Positions 31,731-46,070 of a DNA stretch of 64,000 nt are shown one piece after another (position 1 is the stretch's first letter; the number at the start of each line of letters is the position of its first letter). Under the pieces are notes generated by a model. It saw only the letters and a program-made list of their open reading frames with translations. It was not told the origin of the DNA and made no database searches. Source of the DNA: an uncultured delta proteobacterium (GTDB lineage: Bacteria; Desulfobacterota; Binatia; UBA9968); assembly GCA_963816145.1 (NCBI GenBank), contig CAWFJP010000003.1, positions 256,001-320,000 of the forward strand, read 5' to 3'. A program made the position numbers and the translations under genes.

Positions 31731-33179
31731 ATGGCAATCAACGATCTACGGGAGTTTATCGATGCCGCGCGCAAGCTCGGCGAGGTCACGGAAATCCACG
31801 GCGCCCATTGGGAACTGGAAATTGGCGCCCTCACCGAATTGTTCGCGTTCAAAGAACCATCGCCGCTCGTGCTCTTCGATCAGGTGCCGGGCTATGCGCC
31901 AAACTTTCGTATTGCGTCAAATCTCATCAACACGCCGTCGCGCTCGAGTCTGACCGTCGGTATGCCGCCGGATGCCAGACCGATCGAGCTCATCGCCAAA
32001 TGGAAAGAACTACTCAAGGGCGTAAAGCCCGTACCGCCGCGGGTGGTCAAGACTGGCCCCATATTGGAGAACGTCAAGTCCGGCGCCGATGTCGACATGA
32101 CGATTTTTCCGACGCCGCACTGGCATGAACTCGACGGCGGCCGTTACATCGGCACCGCGGACTGCGTCATCACCGGCGAGCCCGAAGAAGGCGGCTGGGT
32201 CAACGTCGGTATCTATCGAGTGCAGATTCACGACAAAAACACGTTGGGCCTTTATGTCTCCCCCGGCCATCATGCGCGGATCATGCGCGAGAAATACTGG
32301 GAGCAGGGCAAGAGCTGTCCGGTGGTCGTCACCTTCGGCCAGGACCCGCTCCTGTTTCTCGTCGCCGGTCAGTCGATGCCCTACGGGATGTCCGAATTGG
32401 ATTATTACGGCGGCTTGCGTGGTGCGCCGATCGATGTGATTCGCGGTGAACTCACCGGCCTGCCGATTCCGGCCCACGCCGAGATCGCCATTGAGGGCGA
32501 AGTGCCGCCGCCGCAAGAACAGATGCAGATGGAAGGACCGTTCGGCGAATGGCCAGGCTACTACGCCCACGGCGCCGCCAAAGAGCCGGTGATCCGCGTT
32601 AAACGAGTTTATTATCGCAATGATCCGATTCTCTGCGGCGCGCCGCCGTTGAAACCGCCGTTTGTCACCTTCGGTGTGCCGATCGGCGCTGCGGCGATCT
32701 GGAATTATTTGGAGAAAGCCGACGTGCCTGACATCAAAGGCGTCTGGTGCGCCATCGGCAGCTCGGCGGCCGCCGGCGGCGCGCCGTTTATCATTGTTTC
32801 GGTCAAGCAGCGCTATCACGGCCATGCGCAGCAGGCCGGCCTTGCCGCCCTCGCTTCGCGGGGCGGCAATTATCATGGCCGCTTTGTCATTGTCGTCGAC
32901 GACGATATCGACCCGTCGGATATGAAAGATGTCATCTGGGCGGTGTCGACGCGCTGCGATCCCAAGACTGCGATCAGCATCATCGACGGCTGCTGGAGCA
33001 CGCCGCTCGATCCGGCCATGCATCCGGACCAGCGCGATGCCGGCAACTTCGTCAACAGCCGCGCCGTAATCAACGCCTGCCGGCCGTACGCATGGCGCGA
33101 CCGCTTTCCGCCGGTCAATGCCTTGAGCCCGGATCTCAAGCGCACGATCAGCGAAAAGTGGCGCAAAGAATTGGCCTGA
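31731..33179 (+). CDS. UbiD-family decarboxylase
   Basis: DGGRYIGT, EGPFGEWPGYY, VDDDIDP, WAVSTR. Confidence 0.93.
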   Translation: MAINDLREFIDAARKLGEVTEIHGAHWELEIGALTELFAFKEPSPLVLFDQVPGYAPNFRIASNLINTPSRSSLTVGMPPDARPIELIAKWKELLKGVKPVPPRVVKTGPILENVKSGADVDMTIFPTPHWHELDGGRYIGTADCVITGEPEEGGWVNVGIYRVQIHDKNTLGLYVSPGHHARIMREKYWEQGKSCPVVVTFGQDPLLFLVAGQSMPYGMSELDYYGGLRGAPIDVIRGELTGLPIPAHAEIAIEGEVPPPQEQMQMEGPFGEWPGYYAHGAAKEPVIRVKRVYYRNDPILCGAPPLKPPFVTFGVPIGAAAIWNYLEKADVPDIKGVWCAIGSSAAAGGAPFIIVSVKQRYHGHAQQAGLAALASRGGNYHGRFVIVVDDDIDPSDMKDVIWAVSTRCDPKTAISIIDGCWSTPLDPAMHPDQRDAGNFVNSRAVINACRPYAWRDRFPPVNALSPDLKRTISEKWRKELA

Positions 33180-36351: not shown

Positions 36352-37356
36352 TTACTGCTTCAACTTACCTTCGGCGCGCAGCTCTTGCTGGGCGATTTTG
36401 AGAATCCGGTCGTTGATCACACGATCGACGGTGAAGTTTTTTTCGACCAAACCGGTGCGGATATCTTCATCGAGCATCTGCTGGATGCCCGGCACGGCGA
36501 TCGTCAGATCGCCGGTTAGCCCCGGCGAATAAAGATCCCAAGCGGCGCTGACAATATCAGGGTCGCCCTGCATGCCGGCATCGTAGCCTGCTTTGATGGC
36601 ATCACGTTTGTTGTATTTAGCGATTTGCATGCCTTGAATATAGGCTTTGAGCACGCGCTTGCTGGTTTCAGGATATTTATCCAGCACTTCATTGCGCGTG
36701 ACGATAATATTTTGTGGAATGCCCAAGGACTCGTTCATGTTGCTAATCACAACGTAACCGGAGCGGATGAGCCGGACGGCGTCTTCGGTTGAAAACGGCG
36801 CTGCGGCAATAATCCCCTTCTCGATCGCGGCGGCGCGCAACACCGTGCCCCCGATGGAGCGCAATACGACGTCCTTATCGGGATTGATATTGTGCTTCTT
36901 GAGAAACGCTTTGACGGCGAATTCCGAATAAGTGCCGGCGCCGGTGATGCCGATCGGCTTGCCGCGCAGATCTTCGACGCTGCGGGTTTGCTTGTTGCCG
37001 AGTAGAATATAATTGGTGGTACTCGAAATGCAGCCGATAATCGTCAGATCCAGGCCGCGTGCTTTGCCGCGAAAGATCGCCTGTGCCCCGCCGATACTGG
37101 CGAAGTCCACTTCGCCGGAAATTAGAGCTGAAATCGCCGCCGGCCCGCCGCGAATCAAGATCGGCTCGATCTGCAATCCCTGCTGCTTGAAATAGCCTCG
37201 CGCCAACGCCGCGCGAAAAGGTATTTCGCTATTCCACGCCAGACTGACGAAGACCATGCGGATATTTTTCTTTTCCTGGGCCGACGCCGTCTCGGCGCAA
37301 AAAGCCGCGACGATAAGGCAAATCCCGACTTTCAATATTTTCCGTATGCTCATCAC
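36352..37356 (-). CDS. NMT1-like ABC substrate-binding protein (tandem paralog)
   Basis: Closely similar to 35350..36348. Confidence 0.88.
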   Translation of the reverse strand: MMSIRKILKVGICLIVAAFCAETASAQEKKNIRMVFVSLAWNSEIPFRAALARGYFKQQGLQIEPILIRGGPAAISALISGEVDFASIGGAQAIFRGKARGLDLTIIGCISSTTNYILLGNKQTRSVEDLRGKPIGITGAGTYSEFAVKAFLKKHNINPDKDVVLRSIGGTVLRAAAIEKGIIAAAPFSTEDAVRLIRSGYVVISNMNESLGIPQNIIVTRNEVLDKYPETSKRVLKAYIQGMQIAKYNKRDAIKAGYDAGMQGDPDIVSAAWDLYSPGLTGDLTIAVPGIQQMLDEDIRTGLVEKNFTVDRVINDRILKIAQQELRAEGKLKQ

Positions 37357-37395
37357 TCCACCACTCCAATACTCCAGTATGTCAATCTCGCGAGG

Positions 37396-37863
37396 TCACC
37401 GCTTCGCGTACACAGTGGTCTTGCCGTTCTTGTCGAACGTGAGCACGCTATACGGCTCCGGTGTGCCGCCCTCCATGCCGGGCGATCCTACCGGCATTCC
37501 CGGAACCGCCAGACCGACGATGGGTGGTTTTTCCTTGAGCAATTTTTCGATTAGGTCAGCCGGTACGTGGCCTTCGATAACGTAACCCTCGATTATCGCA
37601 GTGTGGCAGGCGAAAAGTTGTTCCGGCACACCGCGCTGACGCTTGAGGTCGGTGAACGCCTTGCCAAATAAAATTTTCTTGTTGACTTTAAATCCGCTTT
37701 TTTCCAGGTGCACGACCCAGCCATCGCAGCAGTCTCAGGTCGGAGTCTTGTAGACCGTGATCGATTTTGCCGCGGCTTTCGCCGGCGCTTGCGCGGACGC
37801 CGGGGAAAGCAGAAACAAGCTCAAGGCGAGAACGGTATATGCGGCAAAACGGTTATTTCGCAT
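37396..37863 (-). CDS. DUF411/CopG-like periplasmic metal-binding protein, candidate selenoprotein (TGA at codon 43)
   Basis: Signal peptide, VYKTPT-TGA-DCCDGW, ACHTA, EGHVPA and GLAVPGMPVGSPGME, all in one frame. Confidence 0.8.
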
Positions 37864-37954: not shown

Positions 37955-39094
37955 ATGACCAGGAACGGCATGAAGGTCTTGGATAGCGATATGCACCTGA
38001 TGGAGCCGGTGGATCTTTGGCAGCGCTACATCGACGCGAAATTCAGCAGCGAGGCGCCGCGCGGCGTCACCAGCGAAAATGTCCGCGACTTGCGCATGGT
38101 GCATCCCGACGGTCGGCTCTGGGGTCTGCCGCCGCGCCACAGCGAACGGACCGTGATCAATCCCGGTCACAATTTCAAAAAGAACCAAAGCACCTATCGC
38201 GGCCACTCGGAACGCGGCTGGACCGCCGAAGTCCAGCTCGAAGCCATGGATGTCGAAGGCATCGACGTCGCCGTGCTCTATCCGACCCGCGGGTTGAATG
38301 TCCTGAGCGAGCCGCATATGGAACCCAACTTCGCCGACGCGTTGGCGCGGGCGTATAATAATTGGCTCTACGATTTTTGCGAGAAAGATCCCAACCGGCT
38401 GCTCGGCGCCGGCATGCTGTCGACTTTCGATATCGATGATGCCGTCAAGGAAGCCAAGCGCTGCGTTAAAGAGCTCGGCTTTCGCGCCGTGTTTCTGCGC
38501 TCGAACATCATGAACGATCGCAATTGGCATGAGGATTATTACGAGCCCCTGTGGAGCGCGCTGGAAGAGCTCGCGGTCCCGGTCGGTTTTCATGAGTCAT
38601 CGTCATCTGCGGCGCGCCAGACCGGCGATTGGTTCGAGCCCAATTTCATGATGCGCCGAGCGGTCGCCCAACCGATGGAACAGATGCTCGGCTTGGTGGC
38701 GATTTGCTCCGGCGGCGTGCTCGCCCGCCATCCCAAGCTGCGGGTGGCGTTTCTCGAAGCCAATTGCACCTGGTTGCCTTGGCTTTTATGGCGTTTGGAC
38801 GAAGGTTGGGAGCGTGAAGGCGATATCTGGGCCAAGGATCTGACGATGAAACCGAGCGATTATTTCAAACGGCAAGTGTTTGTCTCCGTCGAACCGGACG
38901 AAGCCGGCGTAAAATATGTCATCGATTACATCGGCACCGACCGGCTGGTTTTTTCCACCGACTATCCCCATGGCGACTCGAAGTATCCTCAGGCCGTGAA
39001 TAGCTTTCTTGAATTGAAAATCGCCGACGAAGACAAGCGCAAGATACTTTGGGACAACTGCGCCGAGTTTTACAAAATCGATAACAGGCCATAG
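37955..39094 (+). CDS. Amidohydrolase_2 family protein
   Basis: DSDMHLME, FLEANC, FSTDYPH; TAAGGAGG RBS. Confidence 0.9.
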   Translation: MTRNGMKVLDSDMHLMEPVDLWQRYIDAKFSSEAPRGVTSENVRDLRMVHPDGRLWGLPPRHSERTVINPGHNFKKNQSTYRGHSERGWTAEVQLEAMDVEGIDVAVLYPTRGLNVLSEPHMEPNFADALARAYNNWLYDFCEKDPNRLLGAGMLSTFDIDDAVKEAKRCVKELGFRAVFLRSNIMNDRNWHEDYYEPLWSALEELAVPVGFHESSSSAARQTGDWFEPNFMMRRAVAQPMEQMLGLVAICSGGVLARHPKLRVAFLEANCTWLPWLLWRLDEGWEREGDIWAKDLTMKPSDYFKRQVFVSVEPDEAGVKYVIDYIGTDRLVFSTDYPHGDSKYPQAVNSFLELKIADEDKRKILWDNCAEFYKIDNRP

Positions 39095-44485: not shown

Positions 44486-46070
44486 TTATGATTCCGAACT
44501 TTGCGCTAACTCGAACTTGCCATCCTTATCCTGCCTAATCTTCCCATCCTCGTATAACTGCGCCACCGTGTTGGCGACGGTTTTATAATCCACCTTGGCA
44601 AAATTCTCCAGTAGATCGGCGAAGAAGCAGTGCGACTTACCCAGTGCTGCAGTGATTTTTTCACTCAAGGTCGCGACGGTTTCAGTCTGCTTGATTTCAG
44701 CTTTCCGTTTGGCCGTGATTTCCGCCGCGCCCAGATAGTCACTCAATTGGACCTTGTCTTGATTAAAATAGACGATCCGCTTGTAGCGTTCCGCGGGAAT
44801 ATTTTCCGGGATCGTTGCGTCGATCCCCATCTTGGCGGTGGTCGGCACTTTGCCATGGATGGGCAGGGACAGCGACGGATCGAGGGGTTTCGATCTGGCG
44901 TTGGAGACGATGACTACGTCACGGTCGGCTTGAACCCGCGTCGCCACCGCCCACTCGACATCGACGGGGTCGAATACATCGATATCGTCGTCGACGATGG
45001 TGACATGCTTGATATCCGCGATGGACAAAAGCGCCATGATCGCGTTCTTGCCGTCGCCCGGCACTTTCTTGATCGACGCGACGATATGCCAGTGACAGCA
45101 GCCGCCGGGGGTAACGTTGATGGCGACCGTCTGCACGCCGGCTTCGAAGAGCACCCGGCGGGCGGCAGCTTCATAGATGGGCGCCGACATCCAAATGTTT
45201 TCCCAGGGCATTTGCAGTGCGTAATACATCGCGTCCTTGCGATGCATGATCGCTTTGATGCGCACTCGCGGGTTCATATGCATGCCGCCCATGAGCCGGT
45301 TGAACTCCGAGAACGGCCCTTCAGTGTGCACCCAACCTTCTGGCAAGGATTTCCCCTTCGAGGACGATCTCCGCGTCGGCGATGCACGGCACCGGCACGG
45401 TCTCGCCATCGGCGAGTCGCAGCGGTTCATGGCGGAGGCCGCCGGCAAAGGTCAATTCGTTAACGCCGAGGTTGGCCTTGAAGGTTGACGCGACGAGTTC
45501 GTAGGGATGGGTGCCGATGGAAATCGAGATCGGCAACGGCTTCTTCTTTGCCAACGCCCGCTCGGCGAACCGACGCATATTGTTGGGCGTGACGATGTCG
45601 ATGCCGGTGACGTTGCGTTCTTTGAGCATTAGACGGTAGATGCCGGCGTTGATGCCGAACTCCGGGTCCTCGGCGATGACCACCCCGCCGGTGATCATCG
45701 GCCCGCCGTCCATCACCGAGAACACCGGCACCGGCAGATCGAAGAGATTAACTTTCTTGCCGGTGATTTTGACTTCTTTCACCGGCGCGTTGGCGACCCG
45801 CTTGGGCTGAATTGGCTTGTCCATCGCCTTGCCCAGCTTGTCGGCGATGTTTGCATAGTCGACACCCATGCCCAGAGCGATGCGATTGCGGGATTGCAAC
45901 AGACCAGAAGCCAACGACATGGAATAACCAGGTAGATTTTTGAACAGCAAGGCCTTTTCCGACTGCGCGACTAGGGCGGCGACATCGCGCAGATCCACCG
46001 GCTTGGTAATCTCCAAAAGTTCGTTGTTTTTGCGCAGAATCTCGATGTAATCGCGAAAGCTCGCCTTCAT
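44486..46070 (-). CDS. UbiD-family decarboxylase with C-terminal extension, frameshifted near 45345
   Basis: DGGPMI...EGEIL in one frame; EGPFSE, VDDDIDVFD and GIDAT in the next. Confidence 0.85.

Follow-up and report, generated by a model that had tools for sequence, protein, structure and literature searches.

A predicted selenocysteine-containing homologue of the copper protein CopG (DUF411) in an uncultured Binatia bacterium

CopG is a periplasmic, thioredoxin-like protein in which a CxCC motif and two methionines bind a tetranuclear copper cluster (PMC7558416). In the sections of that review drawn on here, CopG is reported to add to copper resistance under anaerobic conditions, and the oxidation of Cu(I) and the hand-over of copper to cuproproteins are proposed as its functions (PMC7558416). 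The same sections describe CopG-like genes as linked to copA, cus, and multicopper oxidase systems (PMC7558416).

Thioredoxin-fold selenoproteins with a U-x-x-C motif (U denotes selenocysteine, Sec) are catalogued in Table 1 of PMC13188914, among them Sec thioredoxin, DsbA-like proteins, and thiol:disulfide interchange proteins. The parts of this source used here also name metal-linked selenoproteins, namely the SO_0444 family Cu/Zn efflux transporter (with a UxC motif), a CopZ-like 2Fe-2S protein, a MerT-like protein, and an E1-E2 ATPase (PMC13188914). Table 1 of this May 2026 catalogue of the prokaryotic selenoproteome, which comprises 119 families and subfamilies, includes no DUF411, PF04214, CopG, or U-x-C-C entry (PMC13188914). 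A term search in the searchable text of a 2022 review gave no Sec form of DUF411 (PMC9312934). In the literature searched, no record joins DUF411 with selenocysteine or selenoprotein, where supplements could use another name, and among the matches listed for literature naming DUF411 or PF04214, no title mentions selenium. No record of a Sec form of CopG/DUF411 was thus found; the family is known, and the Sec variant is absent from the current catalogue.

Here, we describe such a form in a 64,000-nucleotide stretch of DNA (the window; positions 256,001 to 320,000 of contig CAWFJP010000003.1, assembly GCA_963816145.1) from an uncultured delta proteobacterium of the Binatia. The UGA at codon 43 of the gene is very probably decoded as Sec, judging from sequence comparison, and the product would then be a real Sec-containing CopG homologue. 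This would add one family to the prokaryotic selenoproteome.

Reading frame, family, and fold

The full-length gene occupies 37396–37863 on the minus strand and comprises 155 codons followed by a TGA stop (37398–37396), provided that an internal TGA is read through. The initial annotation had proposed that the ATG at 37863 opens a frame with one internal TGA that continues to the normal end, and the translation agrees: the single internal TGA is codon 43 (37737–37735, minus strand), the proposed Sec codon, which is kept across homologues. It stands in the context ITVYKTPT-TGA-DCCDGWVVHLEK, and the motif region reads ITVYKTPT-TGA-DCCDGW. Codons 1–24 (37792–37863, minus strand) form a putative signal peptide with an ASA/QA cleavage site. 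By eye, the N-terminus MRNNRFAAYTVLALSLFLLSPASA/QA resembles a Sec-type signal peptide, as had been suggested, and all aligned homologues share a hydrophobic N-terminus. In the AlphaFold2 model, residues 5–18 form an N-terminal helix of low confidence.

Standard ORF calling splits the gene into a 46-aa ORF terminated by the TGA of codon 43 and a 105-aa ORF that starts from a GTG at 37713 (37396–37713, minus strand) and has neither the signal peptide nor the UxCC motif. The expectation that ORF callers truncate the gene holds equally for the databases, where 115 of the 120 best protein matches are ORFs of 105–161 aa which cover 67–69% of the query, namely the part downstream of the TGA. They consist of P0004, with 105 aa and 98% identity, and 114 further shortened entries, one of which bears the name ‘DUF411 domain-containing protein [Candidatus Binatia bacterium]’. 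Gene callers would cut the gene short because its internal stop is read as Sec. This would expose a systematic annotation error, by which relatives are stored as fragments lacking the export signal and the motif.

Five of the 120 best database matches are full-length (P0002, P0003, P0023, P0052, and P0112). P0112 is a Cys form. P0002, known from one contig, is 72% identical and has Ser at the column of codon 43; by eye, it is nearly the same as the relative in genome G025 (locus L019). P0023 and P0052 have Trp at this column and are probably gene calls made under a code in which TGA is Trp. P0003 (230 aa) consists of tandem DUF411 units, the first of which is cut at its N-terminus while the second has C-A-C-C.

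The read-through product matches Pfam DUF411 (PF04214) with an E-value of 2.6e-26 and 91.5 bits against a cut-off of 27, and the whole genome (99.47% complete) has no second DUF411 match. A scan of NCBIfam gave nothing except a weak and meaningless match to chromo_anti (18.5 bits, where the cut-off is 86). In a phmmer alignment with CopG of Pseudomonas aeruginosa (6wis_A; E 4.5e-28), codon 43 is aligned with the first Cys of C-G-C-C, which bears out the assignment of the TGA to the first Cys of the family motif. The U-D-C-C of codons 43–46 (37726–37737, minus strand) thus corresponds to the CxCC copper-cluster motif of CopG.

Alignment A2 combines 23 Sec forms and eight Cys forms (31 sequences). 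Its invariant positions are C/U43, C45, C46, C86-H87-T88 (37600–37608, minus strand), G98-H99, G122-M123-P124, and P128-G129-M130, of which the last two belong to the sequence G-M-P-x-G-S-P-G-M with its two conserved methionines, the counterparts of those that act beside CxCC in CopG (codons 122–130; 37474–37500, minus strand). The features of CopG are hence kept: U-x-C-C replaces C-x-C-C, differing in the first position alone, and both M123 and M130 are invariant.

The AlphaFold2 model computed on A2 (pLDDT 90.3) has a strand at 34–39 followed by a helix at 44–55, which places residue 43 at the N-terminal end of helix 1 in the model. This end is the seat of the attacking Cys in the C-x-x-C of thioredoxins. 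As residue 43 takes the position of the attacking Cys, U43 and C46 would form a U-x-x-C. With Foldseek, the top matches are the CopG structures 6wje_C and 6wis_A (E about 3e-14, target TM 0.90–0.91, rmsd 1.5–1.7; for 6wis_A, E 3.6e-14, target TM 0.91, rmsd 1.5), and the next PDB matches are thioredoxins and glutaredoxins with E 0.017 or worse.

The protein thus resembles CopG of P. aeruginosa (6WIS/6WJE) in its PF04214 membership, with 42% identity over about 125 aligned columns, in the position of the motif, the Met pair, the CHT and GH residues and the fold, and, by eye, in its exported N-terminus. It differs from CopG in that its first Cys is encoded by UGA, i.e., would be Sec. With thioredoxin-fold U-x-x-C selenoproteins, some of which are exported, it would share a Sec at the N-terminal end of helix 1, a Cys three residues on, and the replacement of a redox or metal-binding Cys that other members use. 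Unlike them, it combines a U-x-C-C motif, which has one Cys more, with a partner loop rich in Met, and its family is known for a copper cluster instead of disulfide exchange. In the SO_0444, CopZ-like, MerT-like, and E1-E2 ATPase Sec forms, Sec likewise lies in a metal-handling Cys motif and is a prediction of comparative genomics; judged by their description, however, these belong to unrelated folds or families, and none is of the soluble, periplasmic, cluster-binding CopG type.

Recurrence of the in-frame TGA

Whole genomes were searched in six frames with the read-through protein as the query. Among 61 related genomes, 27 matches were found, and 25 of them contain a single in-frame TGA; the exceptions are a divergent Cys-form second copy in genome G033 (locus L040, YADYNCQCC) and a partial match of 35 residues in G005. 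Across the order (123 genomes), 55 matches were found in 52 genomes, and 53 of them have one TGA, the other two being a partial match with TAA in G520 and the Cys copy without a stop in G033. By family within the order, 49 of 89, two of five, and none of 28 genomes have a match. The TGA form itself is common, as it occurs in 51 of the 123 genomes.

We cut out 30 of the 53 TGA-bearing matches (25, plus those of five further genomes). The TGA column is identical in all 30, in the shared setting Y/F-x-x-P-x-TGA-x-C-C. Homologues with TGA at this column, which the initial annotation had proposed to look for, therefore exist, and their identity to the window's protein ranges from 83% down to 49%. 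The flanks are conserved on both sides, with ITVY-x-x-P upstream of the TGA and x-C-C-x-x-W-x-x-H-L downstream. Judged from these alignments, the recurrence of the TGA is far beyond chance and is not damage. The column of codon 43 is Cys in nine Cys forms (P0112, L040, and L042–L048) and in 6wis_A; in the aligned homologues without TGA, it is always Cys and never Trp or Gly.

TGA also serves these genes as an ordinary stop. The 25 homologues end with TGA (10), TAG (10), or TAA (5), the gene in the window itself ends with TGA, and two of the 12 Pfam-supported ORFs of the window do so as well. A genome-wide recoding of TGA, which was considered as another explanation, is thereby ruled out.

The public records of the relatives carry the label Candidatus Binatia bacterium. 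When 400 genomes sampled from the phylum were searched, no additional match reached E 1e-8 or better; hence, among the genomes searched, the family is rare beyond the order within the phylum. Among the matches listed, there are at least eight related loci, one of which is a TGA form (Candidatus Binatia bacterium) and seven of which are Cys forms from other phyla, archaea included. In a maximum-likelihood tree of 23 Sec and nine Cys forms, three of the latter are placed within the Sec forms, namely those of a Gammaproteobacteria MAG and a Gemmatimonadaceae MAG, and P0112. On the best tree, three changes of the Sec label are needed, well-supported branches force only one change, and the AU test for a single Sec clade gives p 0.049.

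One closed genome has two identical Sec-CopG copies (L049 and L050, on G037:C1 around 3.295 Mb and 4.454 Mb). Both belong to an inverted duplication that exceeds 10 kb and has their neighbours in mirror order, and they are flanked by transposases of the Mutator family and with rve domains.

Near-identical DNA is present in 17 DNA runs from many studies, comprising metagenomes of wetland, soil, and sediment together with a single run of a coded organism. In contigs of three of these runs (X1, X2, and X16, from three studies of wetland, soil, and sediment), the letters at 37735–37737 are the same, where one of the three may be the source sample. These contigs thus have no TGC or TGT at this position, and the support for the letters that had been asked of the reads is found in them. 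The sole matching contig of an RNA library (X18) is that of a relative; it spans 37317–37581 with 16 differences and misses the TGA, so that it is silent on readthrough.

Decoding machinery and the hairpin after the UGA

The machinery for Sec, whose presence the initial annotation had named as a check, is complete in the genome. On contig C30, selA, selB, and selD scored 616.5, 417.4, and 380.1 bits, respectively, all above their cut-offs. The three genes lie side by side at 562492–566803 of this contig (G000 C30), i.e., outside the window. The selD gene itself encodes a Sec-containing protein, its in-frame TGA being located at a typical G-U-A-A-K site. A tRNA-Sec with the anticodon tca was detected by ARAGORN at C30:576761–576855, about 10 kb from selABD.

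SelB works at a set distance between the UGA and a hairpin. In the window, a SECIS-like element at 37689–37737 (minus strand) is the minimum-energy fold, and its pairing is kept in relatives. The lower stem starts at the UGA and pairs 37737–37734 and 37732–37728 with 37698–37694 and 37692–37689; the upper stem-loop at 37720–37704 was recovered independently by RNAalifold. The hairpin lies at the distance expected for SelB.

For alignment A1, 57 nt around the UGA were taken from 25 loci (23 distinct sequences), and the pairing of columns 4–7 and 9–13 with 43–47 and 49–52, and of columns 21–27 with 31–37 in the upper stem, was scored. These pairs are formed in 87.2% of the cells, versus 38.6–48.1% when the partners are slid by 1–3 columns, and none of 500 shuffles reached as high a value. 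Pair 21/37 covaries, being CG in 10 and GC in eight of the 23 distinct sequences, as does pair 25/33 (GC in 17, AU in three, and GU in three). The apical loop is G-rich (GGU in most relatives, CGUGC in the window) and lies about 21–25 nt after the UGA. In the window, the 57-nt fold has −11.5 kcal/mol with a z-score of +0.38, and 120 of 200 shuffles are as good.

Part of the pairing is explained by coding constraint, since the conserved pairs sit in the codons of the conserved W, H, and L. As the covarying sequences are related, each covarying pair may reflect only one or two events. A scan of the whole window at the Rfam gathering thresholds gave no family match. The SECIS candidate is plausible and positionally right and is not proven; we grade it no higher because the fold is like that of shuffles, the paired bases lie in conserved codons, and the covarying sequences are related.

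The hairpin that had been drawn initially, UGCGAUGGC-UGG-GUCGUGCA, can be formed with eight pairs and one bulge, yet it is not the minimum-energy fold. In this register, 67.9% of the cells are paired in the 23 distinct homologues, and 94 of 500 shuffles reach as high a value, so that the register was rejected. The proposal of a bacterial SECIS after the UGA thus stands as to the presence of a conserved hairpin, but the element is shifted a few bases 3′ of the one drawn. The fdhF element of E. coli is likewise a hairpin that starts at the UGA and has a G-rich apical loop. The present element differs from this type by its low stability in the window and the lack of an Rfam match, and the binding of SelB to it is putative.

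Several readings other than decoding as Sec lead to the same DNA. If the UGA were read through without tRNA-Sec, e.g., by a near-cognate tRNA for Trp or Cys, a full-length protein free of selenium would result. The thermodynamically unremarkable hairpin of the window and the Trp in P0023 and P0052 fit such a readthrough, but the aligned homologues without TGA never have Trp or Gly at the column, the Sec machinery is complete down to a SelD of the Sec type, the UGA is followed, at the SelB distance, by a hairpin whose pairing is conserved and whose loop is rich in G, and TGA is an ordinary stop in these genomes. This readthrough is quite improbable. Termination at codon 43, with the 105-aa ORF from the GTG at 37713 being functional or the gene being a pseudogene, agrees with the output of the gene callers. 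A pseudogene would hardly show a stop that is fixed in position in 53 of the 55 matches and in two families, with the signal peptide and ITVY-x-x-P before it and x-C-C-x-x-W after it conserved in frame; the 105-aa product would be missing the export signal and the motif that defines the family, and at the place of the internal start, relatives have GTG, ATG, or no start. We thus consider termination still less probable. A single base separates TGA from a Cys codon, which would fit a sequencing or assembly error for TGC or TGT. The same codon in 51 genomes of the order and the agreement of contigs from three runs of different studies, one of them possibly the source sample, make such an error extremely unlikely. 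The reading as an exported, Sec-containing CopG/DUF411 protein, which the initial annotation had put forward, is in turn supported by the conserved UGA, the Sec machinery, and the family membership.

Gene neighbourhood and possible role in copper handling

Directly downstream of the gene, two tandem paralogous NMT1/THI5-like periplasmic binding proteins of 334 and 332 aa are encoded on the same strand (37356–36352 and 36348–35350). Upstream, genes in divergent orientation encode an amidohydrolase (37955–39094, plus strand), an oxidoreductase of the GFO/IDH/MocA type, another amidohydrolase, and a molybdenum hydroxylase.

The loci of relatives were inspected in 13-kb stretches from 13 other genomes (14 loci). 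The scan for flanking ORFs yielded 73 ORFs from 13 loci, as L050, the mirror copy of L049, was omitted. One or two NMT1-type binding proteins follow the gene in five loci (L054, L057, L059, L060, and L061), and other solute-binding proteins lie beside it in L055 and L062. The second family has, upstream, genes for a membrane protein of the DUF2231 type and for a short-chain dehydrogenase (L049 and L051).

Neither CopA or another copper ATPase nor Cus nor a multicopper oxidase is encoded in the window between 27 and 48 kb or in the about 5 kb around the gene. A copper ATPase, a Cus component, and a multicopper oxidase are likewise absent from the 73 flanking ORFs of the relatives. The window gene thus differs from the CopG-like genes described in the literature, as it has no linkage to copA, cus, or multicopper oxidase systems. 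The multicopper oxidase domain Cu-oxidase_3 (PF07732) was not found in the genome of the window (99.47% complete), and the sole clear copper ATPase of this genome is on another contig.

Also outside the window, at G000:C2:34290–34670 (minus strand), a fragment matches P-type ATPases and contains one in-frame TGA. As Table 1 of the selenoproteome catalogue lists E1-E2 cation ATPases with Sec (PMC13188914), the fragment may belong to a further selenoprotein, or else to a broken gene.

Given a real Sec protein, comparison with CopG makes a copper-centred role somewhat more probable than not. On the preferred reading, the intact gene would give rise to an exported, thioredoxin-fold CopG/DUF411 protein. 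SelB and tRNA-Sec would decode the UGA of codon 43, guided by the hairpin that begins at the UGA, and the mature protein would then have U-x-C-C where CopG has C-x-C-C. The selenolate would stand at the N-terminal end of helix 1, where a U-x-x-C of the thioredoxin type has its attacking residue. With C45, C46, and the two Met as partners, Sec could ligate copper or cycle through a selenenylsulfide, by which Sec-CopG would handle Cu(I)/Cu(II) in the periplasm. Selenium might bring tighter binding of Cu(I), or a faster redox turnover that is less easily over-oxidized.

Whether the substrate is copper is less clear than the recoding. The initial annotation had proposed a copper or metal redox role; the homology to CopG speaks for this, and the absence of copper genes in the window and the 14 loci of relatives speaks against it. 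It is the CopG homology that has to carry the copper role, because no copper genes lie beside the gene in the window or in the relatives, and the lack of this context weakens the proposed Sec mechanism. A periplasmic thiol/selenol oxidoreductase or metal(loid) binder that contains Sec and acts on a substrate other than copper would be compatible with the recoding. Besides the missing copper genes, it would accommodate the recurring neighbours, i.e., NMT1/THI5-like proteins and amidohydrolases, with DUF2231 and the short-chain dehydrogenase in the second family, as well as the multicopper oxidase domain not found in the genome and the U43/C46 pair, a classical U-x-x-C of the thioredoxin fold. 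However, the CxCC, CHT, GH, and GMP...PGM residues, invariant in the copper-linked CopG relatives, are all kept (with U for the first C), the fold match to CopG has a target TM of about 0.9 while the next PDB matches have E 0.017 or worse, and the NMT1-type neighbours may mirror the gene order within the genus and not function. A non-copper substrate is thus possible, though doubtful.

For the copper-centred role, a more far-reaching form can be put forward tentatively, in which Sec acts as a bridging ligand within a multinuclear copper cluster and the U-x-C-C form of CopG assembles a periplasmic Cu-Se/S cluster. If true, this would be a copper centre with selenium ligation, for which no described biological counterpart is known, and it could be the main periplasmic device for oxidizing or buffering Cu(I) in these soil and wetland bacteria, which apparently have no multicopper oxidase. 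With selenium placed in the metal site of a copper-handling protein, what Se does beyond S would become approachable by a swap of U and C.

Elsewhere in the window, a gene for a UbiD-family decarboxylase (44486–46070, minus strand) is broken into two ORFs that overlap and differ in frame, of which 46070–45321 encodes UbiD_N and most of the Rift domain and 45448–44486 encodes UbiD_C. The split is a frameshift, which stems from an assembly error or marks a pseudogene. An intact UbiD paralogue is encoded at 31731–33179 (plus strand).
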